From assembly GCA_964016885.1 (NCBI GenBank), contig OZ024742.1:368528001-368592000 (forward strand): 64,000 bases of DNA, in the 5' to 3' direction. Positions 14,887-61,924 of the stretch are shown piece by piece. The notes under the pieces are model-generated. The model was not told where the DNA came from, did not search any database, and saw only the letters and a program-made list of their open reading frames with translations. Every line of letters begins with the position of its first letter. Within the stretch, counting starts at the first letter, position 1. Position numbers and translations under genes: made by a program. This DNA comes from Eledone cirrhosa. Taxonomy: Eukaryota.

Positions 14887-15176
14887 AATAGTACACTGGA
14901 TCTCCCTGCAACAAGTCTTAACACCCTGGCGGGCAGGCGCTGCAAAATAACACCCAGGAAACAATCCTTGCATACCAGACCCAGCCTCAGACAAACGGAT
15001 GCGGCAAAAAAAAAAAAAAATTGTCCGGGAAAGACTGCTCTAACACCGGCCAGAGTTACCTCCCTTGACCTGCTGCAAAATCAAAACAAGATATTTTTGC
15101 GTGCAATGAACCTTGATGTGGATTTAACCCCAAAACTCTTTCCGAGCAATATAAGGAACACTTGTGATTATGTATG

Positions 15177-15213
15177 CCCTTGAGAAGCCCAACTGGGCGA
15201 AACGTACGTAGGT
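15177..15213 (+). ncRNA. Minimal hammerhead, U3-A8 core variant, second copy
   Basis: Identical to 11857-11893, 3320 bp downstream. Confidence 0.72.
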
Positions 15214-15426
15214 GATATTTTAAATAAACATGTTTTAACGGTCTATTCTCCGATTTTTTACTTTCCCACGTGCTTACGCTCTGCTAACTCTCTAGCCCAC
15301 TAAATATTAACACTTCGAATATTTAATACTGCCGGCACTAGTATCGAGCACCTTTGGCATACGCTACTTGGCAAATAACTATATGTATCACCTATCCCCC
15401 CTTTTTTTCTCTTTCTCGATACGAAA

Positions 15427-27044: not shown

Positions 27045-27266
27045 CATATGTGTATATATTATCCAATTGCCAACACAACGAGAGGTTCAAATCCATAATA
27101 TCGCCCCTAAAGGCGGTTCAAACGGGAACAACTCTGGCTTTCTTTCAAACTCTCCACACAAATATCTCAACTTCAATATCTCTGATCATTAATTATTCAC
27201 CTCTTTTCTATCCTCCTCCTTCTTCTCATTATCTCCTCTTTTTCACTTCTTTTAATCCTCTCTCTC

Positions 27267-27297
<31 letters not shown>

Positions 27298-27327
27298 CTC
27301 TCTATCTATCTATCTATCTATCTATCT

Positions 27328-30160
27328 GTCTCGATAGAATTTAGTAAGGTTCTAGCTGCGGATAGGAATAGGAAGGAAAGGGAGCTAATAGATAGAGTAG
27401 AAGAGGCAATTAGAAGCGGCGACGTGGCCAGAGTGCTAGCGTCGAGAACGGCTTTGAGCCAGTTTTTCGACGCGAAGCACGAAGGCTGCGTTGTCCGAAG
27501 TAAAATACGTGCTCTAGGGAACGAGGGGACCAAAGCTGTTAGCTGGGCCCGCGTGACAGAGGCCAACAGTGGAACTAAATCCACCATCCGGTCTTTGCGA
27601 GACCTGGATGGACGGGCGATTCTTGAGCCTAAGCAGATGTGTGAGGCCTTTCAAAGGCACTTTGCCCGACTGTTCGGGAGGGGCGGGGAACCGGTTGGGA
27701 ACGTGGACTTCGGTCCATACCTCGACGGCCTGCCGCGCCTCTCGGACAGGGAGGCGAAGTCCTGCGAGGAGCCGATTTCGGCCGCTGAGATAGAGGACGT
27801 GCTGAGCCAATGCGGCAAACGCAAATCCCCGGGTCTCGATGGTCTTCCTTACGAATTATATCTAGCTATGCCGGACTTGTTCCCCGATCTCCTCGAGGCG
27901 GTCTACTGCAACTGGCAACAGAACGGGAGAATTCCCTGCACTGTGACCAAGGGCGTAGTCACGCTAGTGAGGAAGGACGAGAACAAGGGGGACGAAATAA
28001 GTAACTTCAGGCCCATAACACTGCTAAATACAGAGTTACAGATTTTGGCCAAGGTGCTAGCAAAGAGGTTGGCGCTTGTCGTGGGCAACCTGGTGGGAGA
28101 TGCGCAGACATGCGCTATCCCGTCCAGGTCCATCCATGACAACCTCCACCTCATGCGATACATCATAGAGAGGGTTGGGAACGAACCCGGCTTTGGTGGG
28201 GCTCTGATCAACTTGGATCAATCTAAGGCGTTCGATAGGGTCGACCATGGTTACCTGGATGCGGTGCTAGCGGCGGCAGGCTTCGGACCCGTTTTCAGGG
28301 GCTGGATCACTGCTATGCACAGCAGCCGCATCTGCTCTAGGGTCAAGGTGAACGGCTACCTCTCGGAGCCGTTCAAAATCGCGCGGTCCATCCGACAAGG
28401 GTGCCCTCTCTCCTCCCTTCTGTATGTGTTGACTCTCGAGCCACTACTGCGGAAGTTGGAGTTGTTGCAGGGCATCCCTTTGGAACCGGGATTGCGGAAA
28501 GCGGTGTCGGCCTACGCCGACGACGTGACAGTAATGGTGTCGACGGCCTCCGAAATCGAGGCGGTCGGCACTTTACTGGAGGAGTACGAAAAGTTCACAG
28601 GGGCTAAGCTGAACCGGGACAAGTCGATCGGTTTGCAACTCGGCACGTGGAGGGGCAGACCGATGCCCTCCGATGGCGTCGTCGGACGCTGGACGGAGGG
28701 CCCGGTGAAGTTACTCGGGGTCTGGTTCGGACCGGACCTCCAGGTGGAGAAAAACTGGGCGGAGGTTACGAACAGGGTGTTTGCACTGACCCAGAAGTGG
28801 GCCAGTTGCAAACTATCCCTGAAAGGTCGGGCGGAGGTGGCGAACACCTACATAGCGTCCGTCATCTACTACCGCCTGACCGTAGTGCCCTGCCCAAGGG
28901 AAACCCTCACCAAGATGGAGCGCGCGCTCTTCCAATTCCTTTGGAAGAGGCGGGCTCCTATGGTGAGGAGATCCATCTGCTGTCAACACCCTTCGAAAGG
29001 AGGGCTGGGGATGCCGTGGCTAATGATGCGTAAACACGCATTAAGGCTACGGCACCTCTACGTATTCCTCACCGGACAACCGGTGTGGGCCTCGTTTGTG
29101 AGACGAACCTTTCCCAGACTCGTCTCACTCACCGAGCTGCAATCGTGGGTCAAGCAAAGACCGAGAAAACTGGGCGCCTGGCACACTGAGTGTGCCCAGG
29201 CGCTCACCGCCCTCTGGCAGGCGGATCCGGTTATCAGTGGAGACTCCACCGCAACATTCTATAGAGGGCTGGTACGCAGCAGGTGCGACGACGCCCTCGG
29301 AGAAGCCCTAGACATGGAGGAGGACGAACTGGCCAGCCTGTTCGGTAGGACATTCAGCCCGGGACCTATGGACAACTTCCAGAAGTCCCTGGCCTGGCAG
29401 TGCTACCGAGGGGCTTTACCCGTTCGAGAAAGGCTCTACAGACACGGGCGCCCGGGTAGGGACCCCGCCAAAAAGATCTGTCCCAGATGCGTGTGCGACG
29501 AGGAAACCGTTGCACACGCATTGGTACACTGCTCGGGCGTAGCCGATCTGTGGGGCTATGTCGAACAACTGCTGTCAAGGGTGGGACCGATCCGGTTGAC
29601 CACCGAGTCTATTGTAATGATCAAGCCGCCTCCCCCCTTCAAAGATGAAGCAGAGGCGGTGTTTCTGTGCGTAATAGCCATGGCGAAAGAGGTTGTATGG
29701 TGGACGCGTCTGAAAGGACTGAGGTCAGACACCTTTCTCTCTGGCCAACAACTGGTCCGTTTCTTCCGATATCATTTCGGAAGAAGGATCAGGATGGAGA
29801 GAGAGGTGCTGCACCCCAGCCGTTTCTATGAAAGATGGGTGAAAGTGGCGAGAATGGCCCGTGTGAATGGGCCTTCACTCTACATCAGACTATAGGTGAG
29901 GAAGATGAAAGACCAAGGGAGCACCCCTTCTCTGTGCTCCTGAGGAGAAGGGTTGCACACTTTTTTCGGGGGTGTGTGCGACCCCCCAAGGCGCCTCCTC
30001 TCTATTGAGGATTTTGTTAAAAATTTTATTTTTTGTTATATCTTATTTTATTTTTATATTTTGTTATTGCCTCCTCCTTATTGAGGACGCCTTTTTGTGT
30101 AAACTCCCCCCTTTGTACTTGTCCCACTTTTGATGCCCTAGTGGCAAATAAAAGAAACTT
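27328..30160 (+). mobile_element. Tx1-clade LINE copy A, 5'-truncated, inserted in (CTAT)n
   Basis: Open RT ORF; 3' end GTGGCAAATAAAAGAAAC; (CTAT)n upstream and TATCTATC downstream. Confidence 0.93.
27424..29895 (+). CDS. LINE ORF2 (RT + C-terminal zinc finger), N-terminally truncated
   Basis: Motifs KSPGLDGLP, FRPITLLN, LDQSKAFDRVDH, IRQGCPLS, YADD, CPRC..ETVAHALVHC. Confidence 0.9.
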   Translation: MARVLASRTALSQFFDAKHEGCVVRSKIRALGNEGTKAVSWARVTEANSGTKSTIRSLRDLDGRAILEPKQMCEAFQRHFARLFGRGGEPVGNVDFGPYLDGLPRLSDREAKSCEEPISAAEIEDVLSQCGKRKSPGLDGLPYELYLAMPDLFPDLLEAVYCNWQQNGRIPCTVTKGVVTLVRKDENKGDEISNFRPITLLNTELQILAKVLAKRLALVVGNLVGDAQTCAIPSRSIHDNLHLMRYIIERVGNEPGFGGALINLDQSKAFDRVDHGYLDAVLAAAGFGPVFRGWITAMHSSRICSRVKVNGYLSEPFKIARSIRQGCPLSSLLYVLTLEPLLRKLELLQGIPLEPGLRKAVSAYADDVTVMVSTASEIEAVGTLLEEYEKFTGAKLNRDKSIGLQLGTWRGRPMPSDGVVGRWTEGPVKLLGVWFGPDLQVEKNWAEVTNRVFALTQKWASCKLSLKGRAEVANTYIASVIYYRLTVVPCPRETLTKMERALFQFLWKRRAPMVRRSICCQHPSKGGLGMPWLMMRKHALRLRHLYVFLTGQPVWASFVRRTFPRLVSLTELQSWVKQRPRKLGAWHTECAQALTALWQADPVISGDSTATFYRGLVRSRCDDALGEALDMEEDELASLFGRTFSPGPMDNFQKSLAWQCYRGALPVRERLYRHGRPGRDPAKKICPRCVCDEETVAHALVHCSGVADLWGYVEQLLSRVGPIRLTTESIVMIKPPPPFKDEAEAVFLCVIAMAKEVVWWTRLKGLRSDTFLSGQQLVRFFRYHFGRRIRMEREVLHPSRFYERWVKVARMARVNGPSLYIRL

Positions 30161-30161
30161 A

Positions 30162-30205
<44 letters not shown>

Positions 30206-32202: not shown

Positions 32203-35200
32203 TAAGATAACAGATTAAAGTTTAAACAAAGAATCGCTGCTTTCACCCATAACGGGATCTTCTGAAACTAACAAAGTCAATCTGTAAACGCAGGAGTGGA
32301 TATTTCAAAAAACGTTGCAACCGGAGGAAGACAGGAAGACGATACTTTGGTTCGTGGAAACGTTCCCTGGCAAAGAACGGGAAAAAACGAATATAATTGT
32401 TTCTAATTTAGGCACAAGGCCAGCAATTACTCAGTGCATTACTGGTACTTTATTTTATCGACCCCGTAAGGATGAAACGCAAAGTCAACCTCGGCGGGAT
32501 TTGAACTCAGAAAAACGAATATAATGCGTCATAAATAGGAGCGGTGAAAAACAATTACGCGCAAAGACAGAACCACGTTTATGGTATAAAAGGGGTCGTA
32601 GACTAATGTTCTCTTATGTGGTTCATAGAGGTGTTCTCTGGCAATGAACGAAAAAAACGAAGATAATAAGTCATATGTGGAGCATGGAGAACAATCGCAC
32701 GCAAAGACAAAACCACGTAAGTGGTATAGCAGAAGTCGTAGACTAAAATTCTAACTAGGAGACCGAATGAATCTCCGCTTCAGAGTTAAGAACAAAGTAA
32801 ATAAATACAATACAGCGGTAATAGAAATTAAATAAATACATACACGCATACAAATACGTACATACACAAGCATATGCGAAAACACTTACCATAGGTATAC
32901 AAAACCACGCACATATAAATATGTGTGTGTGTGTATGCGTGTATACAAATAAATAAATAATTAAATAGACGTATATAAATAAAATACGTATATAACAAGC
33001 GCACACACATACCTACATGTAAATACACAAATGTTCGGAGACGTAAGTCAACCAAAACATGAAGTACACATATACACACACCCTACATACGTACGAACCT
33101 GCATACTCACACAGACGCAAAACTCCCGTATACACATAACCAAATCATGTGTACCAGAATATATAAAATTATACGCCATAACATATACAATCAAATATAC
33201 GTACGAGAAGGTATACGTATCTTCACAAAACATACGGGTAATATATACTTACCTATGCAAATAAGTAATGGTATAAACAAAACATATACTTAGCTACCAT
33301 ATCAAGACGTAAAAAATCCACTTATAGATCGTACTATCCGTTAGGGTATAACGTGGGGCTGTAATACAGGAAAGTTTTGTGCAATTTATGTTTACAAGCC
33401 GAAATTGCCTCAGATTTTTTGTTTAAGATGTGGTCTGTGGCGTAGAGTATTTTCAGGGCCTCAGCGGCGCAGAGGTCACATGTTCTTTTATTTCCGTTAT
33501 ACTATCTAGCCCTAGCTAGGATCTCCCAGTGTAACTTATATTGGGTGTGGTTGTCTTTTAGACTCCAGATATAAGCTGAAAGTGACGCCATATTCATTCT
33601 TAGAGGGTAACGAAAAGAATGGGTATACATGTAAAGACGCTGCTTGAATCTATTAGTGGTTAACCCTATGTAGGCCCTACGGGATGTGGGTGTTTCAACC
33701 TTACATTTGTAGACAATGTTACTAGAGAGGCATTTCCCGGATAGGGGGCAATCAACCCGATTCCTACAATTACAGTTAGTACTAACTACAGGGTGGCACG
33801 TGTTCCTACGGCTAGGTAGTTTAGCTAAATTTGAAGCTGTGATGTTATGTGCAAGGTTAGGAGTCGTAGAGTAAGAAATTTTAATAGTATTTCTATTAAA
33901 AATTTTACTATATTTATGTGTAGGGGGAAAATGCTTCGTAATAAGGGAAAGAAAGATCTTAGGTAATGGTGTGGCCACCTCCATATTATATGGTGGGTTA
34001 TACCAACAAATGCGACGGGATCTATTTCTTCTAGGTCTATTTTCGTACTCTGTATATGCTACCTTATCGACAAATCTACTCCGAGCAAGAGCTTCATTGT
34101 AATAAGTCGAATGGTCGTTGAAAATATGCTCGTTAGTAGAGAGACGGGAAAGCTTCAAAGAAACGTTTCTTACCAGGTTCTTGGTTATGCTGGCAGGATG
34201 GTTGGAATGCTTACTTATGCAATTAAGCGTATCATTCGGCTTTCTATACGGGTAATACAACCCATTCAATAAATTGAGGGTAACGTCGAGGTAATTAACG
34301 ACCGAGAGATTGGCCTCAACCTGTATAGAGAGGTTGAAGCCTTTAAAGAAGGCTGTGAGTTCTTTTCTGAACCTGTCGCAAACACGAGGTCCGCACTTAG
34401 TCATGGTCAAAAGACCATCATCAATGGTACAAACCACCGCCCGCGTTGGGGAATCCGTCCTTGATAGAGAAAAGAAGGAAAAGGCCGATAAGATCAGTAA
34501 CCTCCGCAGAATCGCTGGTGCCCATACTCACGTCGAATGGGGTACTATTGGATTTTTTAATCCAAATAGAGTCGTCGAAATTAATCACCGACTTACGGGC
34601 ATTGAGGATGACATCAACTTCGAAATCCTTAACCACTGTGAGTGTTTTAGCGAAATTGATAGCTCTAAGGAGAAGTGGTAAAGTGATGGAGTAGTAGTAA
34701 TTGTTGATGTCGAATTGGATAAAACGGCAATGTTCCTTGTTGCATATGCCGTTGAACGAATCAATCACCGCGAAGGAGTTGTTCCACAGTGCAAGAGGGG
34801 CCAAACTTCTAATTTCATGTATAATTCTTTCAAGAATCGTTTTACTAAGTCTACCTAAATCGGACTTCGTAGGGTTAATAAGCCGAATAGAGGGGTTGTT
34901 CGGAAAATTGGATTTGTGATCCTTCAGGGTAAAGTGGGGAGAAATAGGGTCCAGAGGTTCGGTCCGGTCCAGGATGTTGAGATCAGATGTGATTTTAAAC
35001 CCAGCATCGTTGATTTCTTTGATGACGCACCGATTAGTTTTACGGGAATCCTTAGTTACAGAATTATGTAGTAGTTGATGGTAAGTACTGCGCTCCGCTT
35101 GATATAGGTTGCCAGTTTTGTCGGAATGGACGTGCACGGCATTAGAATCCTTAATAGAACGAATTCTATTCTTCAGGTCTTGCTGGAAGGAATTGCTCCT

Positions 35201-35711
35201 ATTCGGAAATTTGATACTCCGTATGAGTTCCAAGACATCATTTTCGAAGGGTAGTAATGCTGGGTTACACGGGGGGTTATTATAGGTTTTAAACCCAAAT
35301 TTATCCTGTTTGTTGTCTGCTTTTCGCGGATTATCGAAATAAAAGGCACGCCAAAGCAACCTTTTAATGAACGCGTCTGTTTACTGTATCAGGAGTTTTA
35401 GGTATGTTTTCCTGCTTGGTACGGTTATGTTCTTTGTAGAAATATTCAGATGTTGTTTCTGCATGATGAATATAACTCAATAGAGTGCTCAACCGAGGGA
35501 GCCAAATAGTAATAATAATAAATTTGAAGACTAAAATCCAAAGAGGGCTCGATAAGGATAAATATATATCAAATATATAAGAACCGTAGAGCAAATAATT
35601 TGCTTTACGGTTCTTACATATTTGATATATATTTGATATATATTTGATATAATATTTATCCTTATCGAGCCCTCTTTGTATTTTAGTCTTCAAATTTATT
35701 ATTATTACTAT
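32200..35711 (-). mobile_element. Penelope-like element family C, near full-length, with inverted 5' pLTR
   Basis: Minus ORF from ATG 35464 (MQKQHLNISTKNITVPSRKTYLKLL) through 34421-35359 (RT) and 33502-34437 (EN), with stops and frameshifts. Palindrome 35506-35711 at the 5' end; long 3' UTR. Confidence 0.9.
32395..32510 (-). mobile_element. 5'-truncated Meta-domain-like SINE with 15-bp TSD
   Basis: AAAAACGAATATAAT flanks both sides (~32383-32397 and 32511-32525). Confidence 0.85.
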
Positions 35712-35806
35712 ATATATATATATCTTTCACCGTATTTTTGACTAAAGGAATTTTAGCCTGATAATGGGATTTAGAACCCTCAGATAAATGGAAAAAAGAT
35801 GAGTAT

Positions 35807-35877
35807 TGACGTACATGGGAGTCGAACCCACATCGTTGGTTATCGCGACCACTGCGCTACCATTACACCAACACATC
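35807..35877 (-). tRNA. tRNA-like cloverleaf (pseudo-tRNA)
   Basis: Reverse complement of 36164-36234 with two substitutions. Confidence 0.65.
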
Positions 35878-36163
35878 ACCCATCACCCATCTCTTCCCAT
35901 TCAAATTAGAAACTACATTCTTAGCGAGTTTAAATGGCAAGTAAGTATGTTTTGAAACAGTGAGCAGGTTTGAAATTAGAAAATATATAGCTTTCAACGT
36001 AGGGTTCAAAACCCCATTATCAGGCTAAAATTCCTTTAGTCACAAATACAGTGAAAGCTATATATTTTCTAATTTCAAACCGGCTCACTGTTTCAAAACA
36101 TACTTACTTGCCATTTAAACTCGCTAAGAATGTAGTTTCTAATTTGAATGGAAGGAGATGGGT

Positions 36164-36234
36164 GATGTGTTGGTGTAATGGTAGCACAGTGGTCGCGATA
36201 ACCAAAGATGTGGGTTCGACTCCCATGTACGTCA
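36164..36234 (+). tRNA. tRNA-like cloverleaf, 71 nt (pseudo-tRNA; anticodon position CGA)
   Basis: Acceptor GATGTGT/GTACGTC (G-U rich), A box TGGTGTAATGG, anticodon arm TGGT-cgcgata-ACCA, T arm GTGGG-TTCGACT-CCCAT, and T5 terminator at 36244-36248. Confidence 0.7.
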
Positions 36235-36475
36235 ATACTCATCTTTTTCCATTTATCTGAGGGTTCTAAACCCCATTATCAGGCTAAAATTCCTTTAGTC
36301 AAAAATACGGTGAAAGCTATATATTTTCTAATTTCAAACCTGCTCACTGTTTCAAAACATACTTACTTGCCATATATATATATATATATATATAATAATA
36401 ATTATTATTATTATAAAATGTGGAGAAGGAGCACACGAGTTGGAATATATATATATATGTGTGTGTGTATCTATC

Positions 36476-36519
<44 letters not shown>

Positions 36520-36794
36520 AATATAAATTCAGCGAGAATCGTATTTCGTCGGGTAGAAATTAGCGAAACACAATTTCCGATATGTGTGGCAAGCGCTCCA
36601 TGGACCAAAAGAGACCAGAGCAATAAACATATGTTATAAAGGCCATACCAACTGAGACGGCGGATAAGAAGCTATCAACCAGCTAAGCCAAAAAAACGAA
36701 GTAAGCTAAACGGGTCGAACAAAACAAAATATGAATGAAATATTTACCCGATGAAATATTTACCCGATAAAATATTTACCCGATGAAATATATA

Positions 36795-36881
<87 letters not shown>

Positions 36882-36894
36882 GAAATTACTGTTT

Positions 36895-37245
36895 ACATAT
36901 ATGTATTTGAATTTCGTATTACGAAAGAAATACGGTATGTTTATAAATAAACGTTTAGAAAGCTGTAGCTGTGAAAAACACTGGCAGCTAACGCCACCAG
37001 GCGGAGCCCGGCAGAAATAAGGAGGACAATCCTCGATGCATTTCGAACTCGGCTGGTTCTCTTCAGGACGATCTCTCCTGCTGTTGTAACTGCTGGACTT
37101 TGAAAACAGGCGAAAATATAGTTTTTTCGTCGGTGTAAATGATGGCGTTAGCTGCCAGTGTTATTCATAGCTATGGCTTCCCAAATGCATATTTATAAAC
37201 ATACCGTATTTCTTTAGAAATATGAAATGCAAATACATATATATA
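36895..37245. repeat. Fold-back cassette (~100-bp diverged arms) with hammerhead in the spacer
   Basis: 36895-36997 is inverted at 37142-37245. Minus-strand hammerhead at 37031-37070: CTGAAGA-GAAC-cagccga-GTTC-GAAA-TGCA-TC. Confidence 0.82.
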
Positions 37246-37689
37246 TATAGAGAGAGAGAGATAGATAAAGAGAGAGAGAGAATAGATAGATAGATAGATA
37301 TTGATACATACATATAAATATATTCTCTCTCCCTTTCTCTGCATTTCTTTCTTTATCTCTCATTCTCCCTAATCTCTCCCCCTACCCATCTCTCCATCCA
37401 TCCATCTCTCTCTCTCTCACCAACTCACTCTCTCTCCCCTCTCACTCTCTCTCACTCCCTGCCACTCTCACACCTACTCTATATCTCCCTCCCTCTCTCT
37501 CATTAACTCCTTTTGTGTCTCCCTCTCTTTCCCTCCCTTTCTCACTCCCTCCCTTTCTCACTCCCTCCCTCTCGCTCACCCACTCTCTCTTATTTAACCA
37601 TATATATATAATATACATATATACACATATATATGTTTTTGTGTGCATATATCTATGTATCCATACATACATATATATATATACATATA

Positions 37690-45209: not shown

Positions 45210-45472
45210 TATAAGTTTGAAGAACAATCATACAAAATATATCCAATCTTTCTTCACCCTAGTCCGTAGAAATTAACTAGATAAATGATCATTTAAACGG
45301 AGCTAAGTTTAAAATGTAACTTTGAAGACATAACAGATAAATGTCACAGACTTTCCTCTGTGAGGAACAGTCACATAAAATTTAGCTAGTCTTTACTCTT
45401 AGTCCGTAGAAATTAACTAGACAGATAATCAATTAAACGGAGCTAAGTCTAATATATATATAGATATATATA

Positions 45473-45969
45473 AGAAAATAGAAGCTTTGACCGTATTTTT
45501 TCGACTAAAGAAATTTTAGCCTGATAGTGGGGTTTAGAACCTTCAGAGAAATGGTAAAAGACGAGTATTGACGTACATGGGAGTCGAACCCACATCTTTG
45601 GTTATCCAGACCACTGTGCTACCATTACACCAACACATCACCCATCTCCTTCCATTCAAATTAGAAGCTACATTCTTAGCAAGCATGATGACAAGTAAGT
45701 ATGTTTGGAAACAGTGAGCAAGTTTGAAAGAATGTAGCTTCTAATTTGAATGGAAGGTGATGGGTGATGTGTTGGTGTAAGGGTAGCACACTGGTCTTGT
45801 CAACCAAAGATGTGGGTTCGACTCCCATGTACGTCAATATTCATCTTTTTACATTTCTCTGAGGGTTCTAAACCCCACTATCAGGCTAAATTTTCTTTAG
45901 TCAAAAAATACGCTGAAAGCTTCTATTTTCTAATTTCAAACTTTCTCACTGTTTCAAAACAAACTTACT
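45473..45969. mobile_element. tRNA-like cassette element locus 2 (inverted pair)
   Basis: Same unit as 35725-36372. Cloverleaves at 45569-45639 (-, anticodon position GGA) and 45766-45836 (+, TGT). Confidence 0.85.
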
Positions 45970-46762: not shown

Positions 46763-49700
46763 TGTTTCTTTTATTTGCCACCAGGGCATCAAAAGTGGGA
46801 CAAGTACAAAGGGGGGAGTTTACAAAACAAGGCGTCCTCAATAAGGCGGAGGAATTAACAAAATATAAAAATAAAAGAAAATATAACAGAATAGAATTTA
46901 TAACAAAATCCTCAATAGAAAGGAGGCGCCTTGGGGGGTCGCCCCCCCCCCCCCCCGAAAAAAAGTGTGCAACCCTTTTCCTCAGGAGCACAGAGAAGGG
47001 GTGCTCCCTTGGTCTTTCATCTTCCTCACATATAGTCTGATGTAGAGTGAAGGCCCATTCACACGGGCCATTCTCGCCACTTTCACCCATTTTTCATAAA
47101 AACGGCTGGGGTGGAGCACCTCTCTCTCCATCCTGATCCTTCTTCCGAAATGATATCGGAAGAAACGGACCAGTTGTTGGCCAAAGAGAAAGGTGTCTGA
47201 CCTCAGTCCTTTCAGACGCGTCCACCATACAACCTCGTTCGCCATGGCTATTACGCACAGAAACACCGCCTCTCCTTCGTTTTTGAAGAGGGGAGGAGGC
47301 TTGATCGTTACAATAGACTCGGTGGTCAACCGGATCGGTTCCACCCTTGACAGAAGTTGTTCGACATAGCCCCACAGATCAGCAATGCCCGAGCAGTGTA
47401 CCAATGCGTATGCAACGGTTTCCTCGTCGCACACGCATCTGGGACAGATCTATTTCGAGGGGTCCCTACCCGAGCGCCCGTGTCTGTAGAGCCTTTCTCA
47501 AACGGGCAGTGCCCTTCTGTAGCACTGCCAGGCCAGGGACCTCTGGAACTTGTCCATGAGTCCCGGGCTGAATGTTCTACCGAACAGGTTGGCCAGTTCG
47601 TCTTCCTCCATGCCTAGGGCTTCTCCGAGGGCGTCGTCGCACCTGCTAACCACCAGCCCTCTATAGAATGACGAGGTGGATTCTCCACTGACAGCCGGGT
47701 CCGCCTGCCAGAGAGCCGTGAGCGCCTGGGCACACTCGGTGTGCCAGGCGCCCAGTTTTCTCGGTCTTTGCTTGACCCAGGATTGCAGCTCGGTGAGTGA
47801 GACGAGTCTGGGAAAGGCTCGCCTCACAAACGGGGCCCACACCGGTTGACCGGAGAGGAATACCTGGAGGTGCCGTAGCCTTAATGCGTGTTTACGTATC
47901 ATTAGCCACGGCATCCCCAGCCCTCCTTTCGAAGGGTGTTGACAGCAGATGGATCTCCTCACCATAGGAGATTGCTTCTTCCAAAGGAATTGGAAGAGTG
48001 CGCGCTCCATTTTGGCGAGCGTTTCCCTTGGGCAAGGTACAATTGTCAGGCGGTAGTAGATGACGGACGCTATATAAGTGTTCGCCACCTCCGCCCGACC
48101 TTTCAGGGACAGTTTGCACTCGGCCCACTTCCGGGTCAGTGCAAACACCCTGTTCGTTACCTCACCCCAGTTCTTCTCCACCTGGAGGTCTGGTCCGAAC
48201 CAGACCCCGAGCAACTTCACCGGACCCTCCGTCCAGCGCCCGACGACGCCATCGGAGGGCATCGATCTGCCCCTCCACGTGCCGAGTTGCAGACCGATCG
48301 ACTTGTCCCGGTTCAGCTTAGCCCCTGTAAACCTTTCGTACTCCTCCAGTAAGGTGCCGATCGCCTCGATTTCCGAGGCCGTAGTCACCATTACTGTCAC
48401 GTCGTCGGCGTAGGCCGACACCGCTTTCCGCAATCCCGATTCCAACGGGATGCCCTGCAACAACTCCAACTTCCGCAGCAGTGGCTCTAGAGTCACTACA
48501 TAAGGAGGGAGGAGAGAGGGCACCCCTATCGGATGGACCGCGCGATTTCGAACGGCTCCGAGAGGTAGCCGTTCACCTTGACCCTAGAGCAGATGCGGCT
48601 GCTGTGCATGGCATTGATCCAGCCCCTGAAAACGGGTCCGAAGCCTGCCGTCGCTAGCACCGCATCTAGGTAACCATGGTCGACCCTATCGAATGCCTTA
48701 GATTGATCCAAATTGATCAGGGCCCCACCAAAGCCGGGTTCGTTCCCAACCCTCTCTATGATGTATCGCATGAGGTGGAGGTTGTCGTGAATGGACCTGC
48801 ACGGGATAGCACATGTCTGCGCATCTCCCACCAGGTTGCCCACGACAAGCGCCAACCTCTTTGCTAGCACCTTGGCCAAAATCTGTAACTCTGTATTTAG
48901 CAGAGTTATGGGCCTGAAATTATTTATATCGTCCCCCTTGTTCTCGTCCTTCCTCACTAGCGTGACTACGCTCTTGGTCACAGCACAGGGAATTCTCCCG
49001 TTCTGGTGCCAGTTTCAGTAGACCGCCTCGAGGAGATCGGGGAACAAGTCCGGCATAGCTAGATATAGTTCGTTTGGAAGACCATCGAGACCCGGGGATT
49101 TGCGTTTGCCATATTTGGCTCAGCACGTCCTCTATCTCAGCGGCTGAAATCGGCTCCTCGCAGGACTTCGCCTCCCTGTCAGAGAGACGCGGCAGGCCGT
49201 CGAGGCATGGACCGAAGTCCACATCCCCAACCGGCTCCCCACCCCTTCCGAACAATCCGGCAAAGTGCTTTTGAAAAGCCTCGCACATCTGCTTAGATTC
49301 AAGGATGACCCGTCCATCCTGGTCTCGCAAAGACCGGATAGTGGATCTGCTCCCTCTTTTGGCTTCTGTCACGCGGGCCCAGCTAACAGCTTTGGTCCCC
49401 TCGTTTCCCAGAGCACGTATTTTGCTTCGGACGATGCAGCCTTCGTGTTTCGAGTCGAAGAACTGGCCCATGTCGCCGCTTCTAATTGCCTCTTCTACAC
49501 TATCTACCAACTCCCTTTCCTTCCTGTTTCTATTAGAGGCTAACTCCTTACTAAATTCTATAGAGACTACTCTAATCTCTCTTTTGAGATATCCCCACCA
49601 CCTGCTGTTGACGATGGCGCCCGTCAACCGCTCCTTAACTAAAATGCTCATCCGGTCCCTGTAAGCCTTACTTGCCGGTAAGGACAAGTTGAGCTTCCAG

Positions 49701-52394
49701 TAACCGGGTCCCTGTCTATGAGTTCTGTCAATGATGACCATGCAGGTCACTAACTTGTTGTCTGAATAGCCAACCATGCGCATTTTTGGACAACTTAAAA
49801 AGTCCTTATCCTTAATTCTAACTAAGAACCTATCTAGGTACGACCTAGATGATCCGCTACGATTTGCCCAAATCCAGGTTGGCGCAGTCAGAAAATCTAG
49901 TCGATATCTATCGGCCAGGTCAAATCGACCGATTAACCTTTTGAGGCTATTTCACCCCTCTCTATCGGGACAGGCCCCTACGTAGTCCCAGCGTGCATCT
50001 AGGATACCATTCCAGTCACCCACTAATAGAAAGGACCGGGACGTCCCTAGAAAAGTCGCACCAGATGTCGCACGTTGCTGATCCGGGCCTCGCAAATAAC
50101 CATCACATCTATACGTTGTGACCTGAGGTCATTTAGAAGCATTGCTTGCTTCCAAGTTGAGCCCAGGCCACGCGCATTTAAACAGCCTATTCTTAGCATA
50201 GTCATGTTGGCGGTGAAGAGAAAAGGCACTTACCTCTCTGCGTCCCGGGTATCGGGCTGCACAATTTCCATGAGGGTGGGGGTGGGTTGTTGGGTGAGGT
50301 GGTGGTTTCTGGCGGGGTGGGGACGGAGGTGTTTGGTGGGGAAGGGGTGTCTGGTGGGGTGGGGATGACTTGGGTGGGGGTGCCTGTGGTGGGGAGGCCT
50401 TTGTAGAGGACGCGGTTGATTGGTTTCACGCAGGAATTCCCCACGTCCTCTACAAATGTTTCTTTTAGGGATCTATAAGTTCCTATAGGGACCCTGATCA
50501 GTTTTAGGTTCATTTTTTTGTTTTTGTTGGAGCTATCCAAAGTTTTCCCTTCGGTTTTGACCAAAGGGTTGTTTCTGATGGTCTCCATCAGTGTTCTATT
50601 TTCTTCGTTTATGTAAGTGTATGTGTACTTTTCCTGTGTTGTGTTTGTTTTTGTCTGTGGTTCCTGCATGTGTTTTCTCTTTGTTGTGGGTGTTTTGTTT
50701 TCGGGAGGGGGAACTTTTGTTTGTGATTTTTGTGCTGTTTGTGCTGGTGTTCGTGTGTTTGTTTCGTTTTTGTTCATGCGGTTCTTTCTTTTTATTCTTT
50801 TCACGGGTTGGAAGGGTCCCTCCTCATCGCCACTGGGTGCCGTCGATAGGGGTTCCTCATCCGTGTTGATGGGTAGGGGTATGTTTTGGGGTTCTGTAGT
50901 GTCTGTGTGTGTTTTTGTATTTGTTTTGGGTGGGGAGGAGTTGGGTAGAATATTGTTCTCTGTTGTTTTTTCTTGTTGTCGTGGTGGTGGTGGTGGTGGT
51001 GGTTGTGTTGTTATTTGTGGTGTTGGTAAAAGTGGGAGCTTTTTTTGTCAATTGAGGACAGGCAGCCCTTAGGTGACCTCAGCTTGCGCAGTGGTAACAT
51101 GCGGACTGCCTACCCTCAACCGAAATGTTTATGTAGGTCTGTCCATCCAGAGGTACTCTCTGTGGGATTTTCATTATACGTTCTGGGCTCATCTGCACCA
51201 GAATTTCGACGCTAGTCCCACTAAATATATCTCTGGAGGATTTTCCTACTGAGATCAAAGTGTCTTGTTCAAGGTCAATTAGGCCATAAAGTATCCACCA
51301 AATATCTACTTTGGGTCTTATACATGTAATTTTTATTTTTTACGTTCTTTTTCCCATGTATGTAGAGAAAAATGTAAAATGGGTGGACACAATGGGCGCG
51401 ATGGAATATTTTTGTGCTGTTATGTTGTTTTTCATTAGCACCGAGATGCTGCCGAAAAGTTTGGCTTTCTGAATAAATAAAATGTTATCCATGTGGTTCC
51501 TTAATACTAGCTCAATCTCACTCTGAGATAGTTGAGCTGGTTTTTTTGCTGCATTTGAGATTGTCCTGAAAACCACCGTGTTCTGGGCATTTTCTCTCCT
51601 TAGTTCTTGTGGTGAATTTATGCTAAATGACCCATTGGGTCCAAAAGTCACATATTGTTTAGCATCTTCCAACTTTTGTTTCGCGTTGGTTAAATCCAAA
51701 AGTTGAAATATTTCCTTTTTTTTACGGTATCAGTAAAAGAAATTTTGCTGTTGTTGTCACTGTTGTTTGTATTTTCTTTGGTGTTTGTGTTGACATTTTT
51801 TTCCTTTTGATTGGTATTGTTGGATGTGTTTTCAATTTTTTCATTTTCTGTATTTTTTGGTGTCTGTTGTGGGCTGCTATTTTCATTTTTGTTGTGTGAT
51901 TCCTTTTCATTACGAAAGGAAGTGTTTACTACATATGTGACGTTTGTGTTGTTGTTGTTTTTGTTGTCTTTATTGTTGCTGTTGTTGTCGTTGTTGTTGT
52001 TTTCAGTTTCTTGTATAGTTGTGGCTACATCAAGTTGTCGGTCAGCGGGTGGAGAAAATTCTTCCTCTGGCTGACCTTTGCCTTTGGCATCTGCTGCTGT
52101 GACAGTGGCAGGGGGAAGCTGTGAATATGACTTCCTTTTTCTTCCTTTGAATGTTGGTGAAGATGCTTCAGCCATTTTTATCAAAATAGGATTTTTCGAA
52201 ATTTTTCGAAAGTTAAGTTTTTACAACACTATTTCGCTTAAAGGCGTAGAATATTTTGAGAGACTAACCAGATCAAAATTTGACCTTGCAGTCCCTCTAC
52301 AAAATGGTACGAAAATGAACGTTTACAGTTCACAATTTCCAGATAAATTTAAACGAAACTTACCGAGCGAGCTCAGCACATGTGTCCATCAGGC
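46763..52394 (-). mobile_element. Tx1-clade LINE copy B, full-length, degenerate, with 17-bp TSD
   Basis: ORF1 from ATG 52175 with a CCHC knuckle near 51060-51100. ORF2 from ATG 50205 has internal deletions and stops. GACTTGGTAGATAGATA at 46742-46758 and 52404-52420. Confidence 0.93.
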
Positions 52395-52684
52395 AGATAG
52401 ATAGACTTGGTAGATAGATATGTTTCTTTTATTTGCCACTAGGGCATCAAAAGTGGGACAAGTACAAAGGGGGGAGTTTACACAAAAAGGCGTCCTCAAT
52501 AAGGAGGAGGCAATAACAAAATATAAAAATAAAATAAGATATAACAAAAAATAAAATTTATAACAAAATCCTCAATAGAGAGGAGGCGCCTTGGGGGGTC
52601 GCACACACCCCCGAAAAAAGTGTGCAACCCTTTTCCTCAGGAGCACAGAGAGGGGGTGCTCCCTCGTTCCTTCCTCTTTTCCAC

Positions 52685-55600
52685 CTACAGGCTTATGTAA
52701 AGAGAAGGCCCATTCACACGGGCCATTCTCGCCACTTTCACCCACCTTTCATAAAAACGACTGGGGTGCAGCACCTCTCTCTCCATCCTGATCCTTCTTC
52801 CGAAATGATATCGGAAGAAACGGACCAGTTGTTGGCCAGAGAGAAAGGTGCCTGACCTCAGTCCTTTCAGACGCGTCCACCATACAACCTCTTTCGCCAT
52901 GGCTATTACGCACAGAAACACCGCCTCTGCTTCATCTTTGAAGGGGGGAAGCGGCTTGATCATTACAATAGACTCGGTGGTCAACCGGATCGGTCCCACC
53001 CTTGACAGCAGTTGTTCGACATAGCCCCACAGATCGGCTACGCCCGAGCAGTGTACCAATGCGTGTGCAACGGTTTCCTCGTCGCACACGCATCTGGGAC
53101 AGATCTTTTTGGCGGGGTCCCTACCCGGGCGCCCGTGTCTGTAGAGCCTTTCTCGAACGGGTAAAGCCCCTCGGTAGCACTGCCAGGCCAGGGACTTCTG
53201 GAAGTTGTCCATAGGTCCCGGGCTGAATGTCCTACCGAACAGGCTGGCCAGTTCGTCCTCCTCCATGTCTAGGGCTTCTCCGAGGGCGTCGTCGCACCTG
53301 CTGCGTACCAGCCCTCTATAGAATGTAGCGGTGGAGTCTCCACTGATAACCGGATCCGCCTGCCAGAGGGCGGTGAGCGCCTGAGCACACTCAGTGTGCC
53401 AGGCGCCCAGTTTTCTCGGTCTTTGCTTGACCCAGGATTGCAGCTCGGTGAGTGAGACGAGTCTGGGAAAGGTTCGTCTCACAAACGAGGCCCACACGGG
53501 TTGTCCGGTGAGGAATACGTAGAGGTGCCGTAGCCTTAATGCGTGTTTACGCATCATTAGCCACGGCATCCCCAGCCCTCCTTTCGAAGGGTGTTGACAG
53601 CAGATGGATCTCCTCACCATAGGAGCCCACCTCTTCCAAAGGAATTGGAAGAGCGCGCGCTCCATCTTGGTGAGGGTTTCCCTTGGGCAGGGCACTACGG
53701 TCAGGCGGTAGTAGATGACGGACGCTATGTAGGTGTTCGCCACCTCCGCCCGACCTTTCAGGGATAGTTTGCAACTGGCCCACTTCTGGGTCAGTGCAAA
53801 CACCCTGTTCGTAACCTCCGCCCAGTTTTTCTCCACCTGGAGGTCCGGTCCGAATCTGACCCCGAGCAACTTCACCGGGCCCTCCGTCCAGCGTCCGACG
53901 ACGCCATCGGAGGGCATCGGTCTGCCCCTCCACGTGCCGAGTTGCAAACCGATCGACTTGTCCCGGTTCAGCTTAGCCCCTGTGAACTTTTCGTACTCCT
54001 CCAGTAAGGTGCCGACCGCCTCGATTTCGGAGGCCGTCGACACCATTACTGTCACGTCATCGGCGTAGGCCGACACCGCTTTCCGCAATCCCGGTTCCAA
54101 CGGGATGCCCTGCAACAACTCCAACTTCCGCAGTAGTGGCTCGAGAGTCAACACATACAGAAGGGAGGAGAGAGGGCACCCTTGTCGGATGGACCGCGCG
54201 ATTTTGAACGGCTCCGAGAGGTAGCCGTTCACCTTGACCCTAGAGCAGATGCGGCTGCTGTGCATAGCAGTGATCCAGCCCCTGAAAACGGGTCCGAAGC
54301 CTGCCGCCGCTAGCACCGCATCCAGGTAGCCATGGTCGACCCTATCGAACGCCTTAGATTGATCCAAGTTGATCAGAGCCCCACCAAAGCCGGGTTCGTT
54401 CCCAACCCTCTCTATGATGTATCGCATGAGGTGGAGGTTGTCATGGATGGACCTGGACGGGATAGCGCATGTCTGCGCATCTCCCACCAGGTTGCCCACA
54501 ACAAGCGCCAACCTCTTTGCTAGCACCTTGGCCTAAATCTGTAACTCTGTATTTAGCAGAGTTATGGGCCTGAAGTTACTTATTTCGTCACCCTTGTTCT
54601 CGTCCTTCCTCACTAGCGTGACTACGCCCTTGGTCACAGTACAGGGAATTCTCCCGTTCTGTTGCCAGTTGCAGTAGACCGCCTCGAGGTGATCGGGGAA
54701 CAAGTCCGGCATAGCTAGATATAATTCGTAAGGAAGACCATCGAGACCCGGGGATTTGCGTTTGCCGCATTGGCTCAGCACGTCCTCTATCTCAGCAGCC
54801 GAAATCGGCTCCTCGCAGGACTTCGCCTCCCTGTCCGAGAGGCGCGGCAGGCCGTCGAGGTATGGACCGAAGTCCACGTTCCCAACCGGCTCCCCGCCCC
54901 TCCCGAACAGTCGGGCAAAGTGCCTTTGAAAGGCCTCACACATCTGCTTAGGCTCAAGAATCACCCGTCCATCCAGGTCTCGCAAAGACCGGATGGTGGA
55001 TTTAGTTCCACTGTTGGCCTCTGTCACGCGGGCCCAGCTAACAGCTTTGGTCCCCTCGTTCCTTAGAGCACGTATTTTACTTCGGAAAACGCAGCCTTCG
55101 TGCTTCGCGTCGAAAAACTGGCTCAAAGCCGTTCTCGACGCTAGCACTCTGGCCACGTCGCCGCTTCTAATTGCCTCTTCTACTCTATCTATTAGCTCCC
55201 TTTCCTTCCTATTCCTATCCGCAGCTAGAACCTTACTAAATTCTATCGAGACTACTCTAATCTCTCTCTTTAGAGATACCCACCACCTGCTGTTGACGAT
55301 CGATCCAGTCAACCGTTCCTTAACTAACGTACTAATCCGATTCCTGTAGGCTCTACTTGCCGGCAAGGACAAGTTGAGCTTCCAGTAACCGGGGCCCTGT
55401 CTATGCGTTCTATCAAGGTTGACCATGCAGGTCACCAACTTGTGGTCTGAATAGCCAAACATGAGCATTTCTGGACAACTTAAAAAGTCCCTGTCCTTAT
55501 TTCTAACTAAAAATCTATCTAGGTACGATCTAGATGATCCGCTGCGATTTGACCAAGACCAGGTTGGCACCGTCGGAAAATCTAGTCGAAATCTATCGGC

Positions 55601-56122
55601 CAGGTCAAATCGGCCGAGTAACCCCTTGAGGCTGTTGCACCCCTCTCTATCGGGACATGCCCCTGCATAGTCCCAACGTGCATCCAGGATACCATTCCAA
55701 TCCCCCACTAAAAGCAGGGAACGGGACGTCCCTAGAAAAGACTCCAGACGCTGGAAAAAGTCGGGCTGCTCTGTCCCAAAAGGGGCATATGCGGCTACCA
55801 GCCTAAAGGCTCCACCTTCACCACTGCCAAGGTCCAGCACCACCAGTCGACCCCCTGGGTCCAAGTGAACTATCTGTGTTGCAAGGCCCATATGTTTTTG
55901 CAGCAGAACGACAACCCCACCCCCACCTCCGGGCTGAGAGAGAGATGCGTGCATCTCAAAGTCGTCAAAGGTGGGGGCTAGCTGTCGCATGCTGCTGATC
56001 CGGGCCTCGCAGATAACCATCACATTTATAGATTGTGACCTGAGGTCATTTAGAAGCATTGCTTGCTTCCAAGATGAGCCCAGGCCACGGGAATTTAGAC
56101 ACCCTACTCTTAGCACAGCCAT
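52685..56122 (-). pseudogene. LINE ORF2 (APE endonuclease-RT-zinc finger) with a single premature stop at ~54533
   Basis: LNSRGL, CEAR, AYAP, GDWN, SYLDRF, SDH (APE), then RT motifs. TTG>TAG relative to copies A and D. Confidence 0.92.
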
Positions 56123-56146
56123 GTTGGTGGTATGGAGAAAAGGCAC

Positions 56147-57808
56147 TTACCTCTCTGCGTCCCGGGAAACGGGCCGCTCAATTTCCATGCTGGTTGGGGA
56201 TGGGTTGTTGGGTGGGTGGTGGTTTGTGGAAGTGAAGGGGCATCGGTGTGTTGTGGGGTTGGGGTGTTTGTGGTTGAGTGGGTGTCTGGGTGGGGGGGTG
56301 AATTTTTTTAGGAGGACGCGGTTGATTGGTTTGGCGCAGGGGTGGGTGGGGGGGGCACGTCCTCCGTGAAATTTATTTTCAGTGTTCTGTACAAGTGCAT
56401 TGGGACTTTTATCATTTTCAAATGAGGTAGTCCCACAGCAGTTATAAAGTTAGGCCCTTCAGTTTGGACCGAAGGGTTTGACGAAATTGTTTTCCGTAAT
56501 TCTTTGTTGTCTGTGTTCATGTATGTGTATTGTAAGGTCTTTTTTTGTGTAGCAGTTAGTGTTGTGTGACAGGGAGGGGTGGTTTGTGTGTAGTTTGTGT
56601 TCTCTTGGGGGGGGGGGGGGTTAAAGTTAACATGTGTGTCTGTGGTGCGTCTCCTCTTCTTTCTTTTTACTGTTTGGAAGGGATCTTTTTCGTCTTGCGA
56701 CGAAAGGAGTTCGTCTTCCTTGTAGGGTGGGAGGGGTATGTTTTCTGGTAGTGTTTGCGGTGTGCGTGTTTTTGTATTTGTTTTGGGTGGGGAGGGATTG
56801 GGTGGGACAGTATTCTGTGTTATTTTTTCACGTGTTTGTTGTTGCTGTTGTTGTGGTTGTGGTGGTGGGGGGTTGTTGGTTTTTGTTGTTGTTGTTGTTG
56901 TGGTTGTTTTTGTTGTTGTAGTTGGGGTGGTGTTGGTTTTGGTAGCAGTGTTTTTTTCTGTGTGAGCTGGGGACAGGCAGCCCTCAGGTGACCTCTATTG
57001 CCACAGAGGTAACAGGAGGGACGCCTACCCTCCACAATAATGTTGAGGTGGGTACGGTCATCCAGCATGACGCGCTCAGGGATTTGGGCGATGCGTTCTG
57101 GCCTTATTTGGGTCAGAACTTCGATGCTCGTTCCACTGAACGCGTCGCCGGATGCCTTCCCTATTGAAATGAGGTTTTCCTCGTCTAAATTGAGGAAACC
57201 GGTTAGTAACCACCAGTAGTTTATGTTTGGGGTGATGGTGGTTATCCATATCCTCTGGGGTTTTTTTACCCATGTAGGTGGGGAAGAAGGTGTAGTGTGT
57301 GGACCGAATTGGCGACACAGAGTATTTTTTCGCCGCCAATTCGTCTTTCATCAATATGGATAAACTCCCATAGAGTTTATCCTTTTGTATAAAAGTGATA
57401 TCTCTCATCGCGTCTTTCAAGACTAACTGAATTTTCGCTTGAGATGGTTGCGCTGGTTTTTTTGTTTTATTTAAAATTGTTCGGAATACGACAGTTCGTA
57501 ATTCCGTCTGTCTTTTTAGTTCTGGAGGTGAATGTATAGAAAACGAACCGTTTTCGCCAAAAGATACATATTTCTTGGCTTTTTCCAGCATTTCTTTTGC
57601 TTTTGAAATATCTTCCAGCACATAAGCGACTGATAATTTAGCCGTTTGTGCAAAAGATTTTTGTTTTCGCTTTGGATTTTAGTATTGTTTTGTTTCTCGT
57701 CGTTTGAGTTGTTTTCATCTTTGTTGTTGTTGTTGTTGTCTTTCTCGTTTGGTGTGTGGATACTTGTGACGTTTGTGTTGTTGTTGTTTTTGTTGTCTTT
57801 ATTGTTGC

Positions 57809-61200: not shown

Positions 61201-61875
61201 TAATCCGATTCCTGTAGGCTCTCCTTGCCGGCAAGGACAAGTTGAGCTTCCAGTAACCGGGGCCCTGTCTATGCGTTCTATCAAGGTTGACCATGCAGGT
61301 CACCAACTTGTGGTCTGAATAGCCAACCATGAGCATTTCTGGACAACTTAAAAAGTCCCTGTCCTTATTTCTAACTAAGAACCTATCTGGGTACGATCTA
61401 GATGATCCGCTGCGATTTGACCAAGACCAGGTTGGCACCGTCGGAAAATCTAGTCGAAATCTATCGGCCAGGTCAAATCGGCCGAGTAACCCCTTGAGGC
61501 TGTTGCACCCCTCTCTATCGGGACATGCCCCTGCATAGTCCCAACGTGCATCCAGGATACCATTCCAATCCCCCACTAAAAGCAGGGAACGGGACGTCCC
61601 TAGAAAAGACTCCAGACGCTGGAAAAAGTCGGGCCGCTCTGTCCCAAAAGGGGCATATGCGGCTATCAGCCTAAAGGCTCTACCTTCACCACTGCCAAGG
61701 TCCAGCACCACCAGTCGACCCCCTGGGTCCAAGTGAACTATCTGTGTTGCAAGGCCCATATGTTTTTGCAGCAGAACGACAACCCCACCCCCACCTCCGG
61801 GCTGAGAGAGAGATGCGTGCATCTCAAAGTCGTCAAAGGTGGGGGCTAGCTGTCGCATGCTGCTGATCCGGGCCT
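58290..61875 (-). mobile_element. Tx1-clade LINE copy D, 5'-truncated within the APE N-terminus
   Basis: Near-identical to copy C; (GATA)n at 58240-58289 and 61876-61924. Confidence 0.95.
58553..61875 (-). CDS. Uninterrupted LINE ORF2 lacking only the first ~35-40 codons
   Basis: The 1128-aa ORF in the track, minus its repeat-derived N-terminus. APE YLD is changed to YPD. Confidence 0.88.

Positions 61876-61923
<48 letters not shown>

Positions 61924-61924
<1 letters not shown>

Follow-up and report, generated by a model that had tools for sequence, protein, structure and literature searches.

Layout of the two loci

The stretch analysed here, referred to as the window, comprises 64,000 nucleotides (nt) of the Eledone cirrhosa contig OZ024742.1 (positions 368,528,001 to 368,592,000, forward strand) and comes from a 3.0 Gb genome; it is rich in microsatellites and retroelements, and it carries two loci of a short repeat built around a tRNA-like cloverleaf. 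At locus 1, a forward arm of 1.44 units with a period of 259 (36001-36373) holds the cloverleaf between two direct repeats of 114 nt each (36001-36114 and 36260-36373, 96.5% identity), an inverted arm lies on its 5' side, and (TA)n flanks the whole on both sides. A preliminary description of this DNA had reported a 259-bp repeat-tRNA-repeat unit preceded by an inverted copy in a (TA)n setting, and this layout was confirmed at locus 1. The same description saw the layout recur independently at 45473-45969. Locus 2 (45470-45969) does consist of an inverted and a forward arm with the same two 3' ends as locus 1, but it lacks the full repeat-tRNA-repeat. Four cloverleaves were detected in the window by ARAGORN (anticodons CGA, CGA, GGA and TGT), and the same four match Rfam RF00005 with 35-50 bits (gathering 29). 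An A box, a B box and a run of five T residues (T5) were found in the cassette, in agreement with the 71-nt cloverleaf described earlier. Adjoining locus 2, a short partial tandem with a 63-nt direct repeat and an internal hairpin (45210-45452) lies between (TA)n tracts.

Family size and sampling

The unit is a member of a young, dispersed family. In the genome there are 1,070 matches to an exact 28-mer of the T-arm, 3,132 to a degenerate tail motif and 342 to a marker for subfamily C, and each reversed control gave 0; since the exact 28-mer recurs so often against no reversed match, the recurrence of the unit is not due to chance. From these counts we infer roughly 3,000-4,000 loci. There are at least three subfamilies: A (259 nt), B (262/271 nt) and C (290 nt). 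Loci were sampled by similarity (30), from the first 100 listed T-arm matches (77) and from the first 100 listed tail matches (90, of which 73 were new and 17 already in the sample). The working set was 174 loci after duplicates and one long array had been dropped, and subfamily C was left out of the truncation counts. The dropped array (L069; G000:C1 about 131.459-131.466 Mb) is head-to-tail, with at least 12 diverged units (82-91%). Strand-skewed counts (409 vs 1,142 and 1,094 vs 1,604) point to another array, with several hundred units, that may be a source locus; this suspected tandem array was not located. Three loci (L157, L174 and L178) are older diverged relatives of the family with 76-86% identity, and L157 and L174 are also truncated near the T-arm.

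Insertion architecture

Both strands are present in 128 of the 174 loci. In 105 of 123 diverging arm pairs a long 3' end is combined with a short one about 40 nt away; counted from the tRNA, the long end lies at 195-210 and the short end at 130-175, with modes at 161 and 169. Of the 348 ends, 278 lie against (TA)n and 8 against (CA)n, while the other 62 border neither, and 163 of the 174 loci have no non-microsatellite target-site duplication (TSD). Palindromic or (TA)n microhomology is used at the joints. On the tRNA-sense strand the copies are truncated toward the tRNA, and by these truncation points the tRNA-sense RNA is the template.

Penelope-like elements (PLEs) are described as forming partial tandems and inverted 5'-truncated copies with a 30-40 bp tail at one end (Craig et al., PMC8557442), and those of the Hydra clade as targeting (TA)n (PMC8557442). 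A PLE protein cuts and extends both strands in vitro (Frangieh et al., PMC11167929), with reverse transcriptase (RT) starting at two internal sites that bound the tail and requiring RNA downstream of them (PMC11167929). The family has two 3' ends 30-40 nt apart, one per arm, a partial tandem with an inverted 5'-truncated copy, and a microsatellite target without clear TSD; its paired ends, inverted arms and (TA)n are the PLE 'tail' signature. The tabulation of junctions, tandem and inverted structure and flanks that had been proposed for the whole genome was carried out on the sampled loci, where the 174 loci gave this PLE-type pattern. The earlier suggestion of a non-autonomous, PLE-mobilised element is upheld as to architecture: the paired long and short ends, diverging arms, partial tandems, (TA)n targets and mostly missing TSDs.

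The short and long ends bounding the tail (Table 1) would correspond to the two RT start sites. By analogy with PMC11167929, the 49-nt spacer between the long end of one unit and the next tRNA is a putative RT-binding region downstream of the start sites rather than an upstream promoter; it contains a 4-bp hairpin, the loop of which varies by subfamily. In subfamily C there is an insertion in the tail, yet the spacing between the long end and the downstream spacer is unchanged (by eye, not counted). This suggests that the sequence conserved 'upstream' of the tRNA may be a protein-binding region downstream of the start site of the previous unit. Read on the minus strand, the long end (36358-36373) resembles a near-consensus 5' splice site, which is altered in subfamily B.

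Table 1. Features of the tRNA-bearing repeat at the two loci of the window
Feature	Position	Strand	Basis
Locus 1 inverted arm, with its short 3' end (unit position ~65) abutting (TA)n	35716..35996	-	
tRNA-like cloverleaf of locus 1 inverted arm, CGA	35807..35877	-	ARAGORN and Rfam, 35.2 bits
One complete 259-nt unit, subfamily A	36001..36259	+	
49-nt spacer, long end of one unit to next tRNA	36115..36163	+	
Leader (36145-36163) paired with trailer (36238-36256), lengthening the acceptor stem by ~17-19 bp	36145..36256	+	predicted fold
71-nt tRNA-derived head	36164..36234	+	ARAGORN and Rfam, 41.2 bits
A box and B box of head	36171..36182 and 36213..36223	+	
Site of the principal 5'-truncation hot spot across the family (tRNA nt 55-69, mode 61-63)	36218..36232	+	
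T5 run, candidate Pol III terminator, paired within leader-trailer stem	36244..36248	+	unchanged in A, B and C
Segment with a weak likeness to stem II and GAAA of the hammerhead in PLE family W, without catalytic 5' core	36275..36318	+	
'Tail', short 3' end (36324-36332) to long 3' end (36366-36373)	36324..36373	+	
Locus 2 inverted arm, short end; cloverleaf 45569-45639 (GGA)	45470..45729	-	
Locus 2 forward arm, long end; cloverleaf 45766-45836 (TGT, decayed)	45728..45969	+	

The tRNA-derived head

The anticodon tally covered 162 tRNA copies, 120 of them 71 nt long; among these 120 the anticodon is CGA in 68 and GGA in 41. The variation in anticodon noted among the four window copies is real, but across the family the anticodon is mostly fixed by subfamily, and TGT was seen in one window copy only. 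The anticodon loop is non-canonical, the commonest version lacking U33 and having a pyrimidine at position 37, and without the canonical loop (U33, purine 37) or compensatory selection on the stems the copies do not behave as functional tRNA genes. No parent tRNA of the head was identified. Families of this kind put over a thousand false tRNA-Ser calls into genome annotation.

Between subfamilies, tRNA nt 8-63 outside the anticodon loop show 0/49 substitutions, as against 25/186 changes between A and B and 27/188 between A and C outside the tRNA core (p 0.003 and 0.002; the two comparisons are not independent). T5 is invariant across A, B and C, and the base of the acceptor stem differs, being re-registered in subfamily C. 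The leader-trailer helix (z -3.6, with 0/200 shuffles as stable) is present in all three subfamilies. Among 166 copies, stems and loops have mutated at rates of 2.1% and 2.4%, and individual copies decay neutrally.

Truncation map and arrest of reverse transcription

Truncation was mapped in a tail-picked set of 145 arms of at least 40 nt and at least 85% identity. The main block is at the T-arm: 63 of the 114 passages that reach nt 70 stop at tRNA nt 55-69 (mode 61-63), a stop rate 14.5 times that elsewhere (p=2e-42), while the rate at nt 70-79 is only 2.9 times. No stops were found at nt 42-54 in this set, despite a palindrome at 53-56. The possibility that a single truncated master lies behind the hot spot was rejected, since the T-arm-stopped arms are scattered over the tree of arms (58/227 rows, 48 changes vs 49.3 when shuffled; the tree has only 92 columns and is poorly resolved), which makes the T-arm stop a recurrent event.

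A second peak lies at the tRNA head. In the tRNA-picked set it comprises 33 stops in 1,680 nt at risk against 31 in 6,573 (p=3e-8), and in the pooled data the interval -9..+8 has 36 stops for 2,695 nt at risk, compared with 4 for 2,737 at -29..-10. Because no stem remains there to stall RT, these stops imply an RNA 5' end at -9..+8. Sixteen of the 37 head-proximal ends lie 3-14 nt upstream of +1, which fits an RNA polymerase III (Pol III) start with an unprocessed leader better than RNase P. The 5' ends that reach -9 and then cease, together with the invariance of nt 8-63 across subfamilies, argue indirectly for the tRNA head being a promoter. A third, small and sharp peak is at nt 32-35 in the anticodon loop (12/776 vs 41/10,851, p=1.6e-4, in a window chosen post hoc), mostly at non-palindromic joints.

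The preliminary description proposed that the cloverleaf supplies either a promoter or a host-enzyme cleavage signal defining monomers. The promoter part agrees with the 5' ends and the invariant core; cleavage by RNase P and RNase Z does not, since copies extend continuously from the trailer into tRNA nt 61-71 without a major peak at nt 72, subfamily C has a re-registered acceptor-stem base, and the head-proximal ends so often lie at least 3 nt upstream of +1. With genomic truncation as the only proxy, the ends at +1 and past nt 71 that a mascRNA-like substrate should leave were not seen, although minor use of such cleavage is possible. The tRNA does sit in the middle of the unit as the unit was phased, but that phase is set only by the 3' ends, and one of the classes of 5' ends falls at the tRNA head. 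Similarly, the contrast drawn with an ordinary short interspersed nuclear element (SINE) is correct for the insertions, which are not SINE-like, but the RNA is probably tRNA-headed.

Three causes of the T-arm stop were considered, all of which require a folded cloverleaf on the template strand. Arrest by RNA structure may well be responsible, at a little under even chances. Methylation of A58 (m1A58) is a credible but somewhat less probable cause: m1A58 is common in eukaryotic tRNA (PMC10275265), and m1A blocks RT (PMC8062790). It would halt the cDNA at nt 57, which is 4-6 nt from the mode seen here, and a C-rich flap would be trimmed back as far as the first microhomology. A cut in the T-loop is an unlikely one. 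The thousands of truncation points are a record of RT stalling in vivo.

Hammerhead search and comparison with resident PLEs

No strict hammerhead core was found in the cassette by a search that detects one at window position 37066, and none of the variant cores of the PLEs of this genome occurs in subfamily A, B or C on the sense strand, although the cores of PLE families W and X were detected by the same search. An Rfam search at E<=10 over 35450-37300 returned the tRNA and hairpin noise only, with no ribozyme family. The earlier remark that no canonical hammerhead is visible was sustained. The strict core at 37066 (minus strand) belongs to a small inverted element (36890-37240) that is probably another PLE end or a retrozyme.

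Hydra-clade PLEs are abundant in the genome, as families W, X and Y. Their autonomous members carry the Hydra motifs RW[K/R], DKT and CxCX5C, with 43% identity between W and X. The PLE proteins of the window were not recognised by Pfam, and the clade call rests on the motifs given in PMC8557442. PLE X (window 10183-15420, plus strand) is a Hydra-type partial tandem, with a minimal hammerhead of the U3-A8 core variant in its pseudo-long terminal repeat (pLTR), about 15170-15215. PLE Y (window 33502-35711, minus strand; also L117-L145 and L219-L258) is very abundant, accounting for most of 20,217 matches; its hammerhead core has A at position 4, its two 3' ends are 89 nt apart, and there is a modest truncation cluster at the 5' edge of the hammerhead. 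PLE W (L281, L190 and L215; window 9481-9564) has 55,036 exact matches and a hammerhead in which a long stem II encloses an internal hairpin. Most W copies appear to be truncated or inverted inside stem II, and many close inverted pairs are visible. The two-end pattern is present in the autonomous families, at +28/+117 in Y and +20/+100 in W.

A profile of the non-tRNA body was compared with 778 kb of masked flanks and gave five matches at E<=5, with none for the reversed control. Three of the five fall in stem II of the W hammerhead (E 1.7-4.8), another is a diverged copy of the family, and the remaining one is an unrelated stretch (E 0.12). Pairwise comparisons of the family with W, on the sense strand only, mostly gave z 2-7 under two scorings and mostly below 3 under a third. 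The weakly W-hammerhead-like stretch is 45 nt long, and its resemblance makes a dead hammerhead remnant slightly the better bet. The cloverleaf may plausibly stand 'instead of a hammerhead', but the likeness to a PLE hammerhead is only borderline. No significant similarity was found between the family and PLE X, Y or T, and motif likenesses seen by eye to the pLTR of the adjacent Y, and to X and T, did not exceed those of shuffles. A three-motif pattern common to the family and Y was dismissed as evidence, having been built from both families.

Relationship to known elements

The family works like a non-autonomous PLE and, at the RNA level, likely like a tRNA SINE; it departs from retrozymes, SINE2 elements, miniature retrotransposons with terminal repeats (TRIMs) and tRNA genes on their defining features. 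With non-LTR retrozymes (LTR, long terminal repeat), which are treated as PLE derivatives in bioRxiv 10.64898/2026.07.22.740005, and with the non-autonomous PLEs MRC1 and non-autonomous Chlamys (PMC8557442) it has in common a short, protein-less and non-coding unit of similar length, with copies both in tandem and scattered and with ends of the PLE type. Unlike retrozymes, it has a conserved tRNA-derived, Pol III-type head and no hammerhead core; the type I hammerhead expected in each unit was missing where the controls in W, X and window 37066 were all detected. The Schistosoma Sm-alpha SINE-like element (PMC6765202) likewise has a Pol III promoter inside a tandem unit, with an upstream unit needed for competent RNA, but its monomers are freed by an active hammerhead, whereas the present family has none and has PLE tails and inverted arms.

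Like tRNA-derived SINEs (SINE2), the family has a tRNA-derived head with A and B boxes and one class of 5' ends at that head; unlike them, it lacks a single end of the long interspersed nuclear element (LINE) type with TSD, its RT appears to start internally at two sites, and the monomer is without the downstream spacer. Helenus, Cassandra and Ajax (TRIMp3; PMC10886601) are also non-autonomous retroelements, other than LINEs or SINEs, that have captured a small-RNA-derived Pol III promoter. They are LTR elements with a primer-binding site (PBS), a polypurine tract (PPT) and 4-5 bp TSDs, whereas the present family keeps a foldable cloverleaf and would be their PLE counterpart; two LTRs containing the tRNA with a 4-5 bp TSD were not found, PBS and PPT not having been searched separately. 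Hydra-clade PLEs (PMC8557442) share (TA)n targeting, partial tandems, inverted copies and two 3' ends, but they encode RT and endonuclease and carry hammerheads, and their tails, at 80-90 nt in W and Y, are longer than the roughly 40 nt of the present family.

No PLE-mobilised, tRNA-headed element was found in the available portions of the literature searched (including PMC12477816, PMC11722881 and PMC13282606), a search to which Dfam, Repbase, subscription journals and supplements were external. It is possible, though we rather doubt it, that a repeat-library entry exists already, perhaps under the label of an unclassified SINE.

SINEs travel with LINEs, and TRIMp3 elements with LTR retrotransposons. 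If the present interpretation is true, a tRNA-headed Pol III passenger of PLEs fills a third slot beside these riders. It would also be, at 260 nt, a minimal natural substrate for what the PLE protein needs, namely two start sites and a downstream spacer without a ribozyme, which bears on the purpose of PLE hammerheads.

Interpretation and alternatives

The best reading is a PLE-mobilised, tRNA-headed SINE-like element that spreads from tandem copies. With reasonable confidence, we regard it as a protein-less family that combines a tRNA-derived head with Penelope-type ends. Pol III is likely to transcribe it from the head, and a Hydra-clade PLE is likely to copy it in trans. Transcription would begin about 9 nt upstream of the tRNA in a tandem copy and would have to run through T5 to reach the tail and the following spacer; the remaining templates would be longer multimers. 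The PLE protein would then bind near the spacer, cut both (TA)n strands and prime two cDNAs from the two internal sites. RT would mostly stall at the folded T-arm, through structure, m1A58 or both, and the two cDNA ends would join via microhomology to give a promoterless, palindromic dead copy, so that only read-through copies retaining the tRNA and the downstream spacer could become new sources.

Several observations weigh against this reading. Most passages continue upstream of the head (139 of 175 pooled passages reaching it run on past -10; in the tail-picked set 35 of 43 continue), which leaves Pol III monomers as the smaller share of the templates and makes the majority multimeric or circular; the invariant T5 should moreover curb Pol III multimers. 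Terminator strength is described as context-dependent (PMC8466645). The covariation check proposed for the cloverleaf stems found no two-sided compensatory change in 166 copies, and misincorporation at A58 is absent from read-through copies (2/87). PLE W has a sharp truncation cluster of its own in hammerhead stem II (46/54 arms, a count that may be inflated by subfamily divergence), which means that RT can stall without any modified tRNA. The windows for the 5' ends and the anticodon were picked after the data had been viewed. No autonomous PLE with a shared tail was found in about 0.8 Mb of flanks, the similarity to W is only borderline (E 1.7 and 4.8; reciprocal search E 0.36-0.53), and W is not enriched beside the family (19/174 vs 4/40), so that co-insertion with W was rejected.

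The running of most templates past the tRNA head is what would be expected if tRNA-processing enzymes released a PLE-mobilised RNA from multimers of Pol II or read-through origin, perhaps with ligation to unit-length circles, the cloverleaf replacing the hammerhead. The sharp anticodon-loop peak, the possible dead-hammerhead remnant and the sharing of rare alleles, as frequent between tandem units as between sister arms (12% vs 14%; 1.6% between loci), also accord with such excision. RNase Z, however, predicts 5' ends at nt 72, whereas the main peak is at 61-63 and the rate at nt 70-79 is raised only 2.9 times. The ends upstream of the RNase P site and the re-registered acceptor stem of C also speak against it, as does a 17-19 bp leader-trailer helix, which would not be a normal substrate of either enzyme. 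In Y and W, hammerhead cleavage sites are not truncation peaks, and hammerhead cleavage is dispensable for the PLE protein in vitro (PMC11167929). We consider this excision unlikely. It is similarly improbable that the family is a retrozyme whose dead hammerhead was replaced by a tRNA mimic subject to host m1A58, anticodon-loop cutting and ligation to unit-length circles, in which case the truncation profile would be a fossil tRNA-seq map written by Penelope RT.

The equal mutation rates of stems and loops and the position of T5 directly 3' of the tRNA would also suit an ordinary non-autonomous PLE or decayed retrozyme, passively transcribed, in which the tRNA, as a captured SINE head, has no current role; hammerhead-free non-autonomous PLEs are known (PMC8557442). 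A tRNA core that is invariant in three subfamilies while its flanks diverge by about 14%, and a 5'-end peak at -9..+8 that needs an RNA end there, make this quite unlikely. A conventional LINE-mobilised tRNA SINE, a tRNA-bearing TRIM of the Helenus type or a tRNA gene array would account for the head with A and B boxes, for the direct repeats of the locus 1 copy and for the long array together with the strand-skewed counts that hint at another. These possibilities are largely refuted, and hence highly improbable, by two alternative 3' ends on diverging arms, no A-tail, the scarcity of TSDs, variable 5' ends, a tRNA outside the direct repeats and a non-canonical anticodon loop; the sampled copies are thus not mostly TSD-flanked tRNA-headed SINEs or a plain tRNA array, the outcome that had been named in advance as counting against a PLE origin.

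Other elements in the window

Several young LINE copies, 93-99% identical, lie at 27256-30168, 46953-52220, 52412-57678 and 58415-61969 beside (GATA)n-like repeats; from the pattern of their second open reading frame (ORF2) we take them to be of the L1/Tx1 type.
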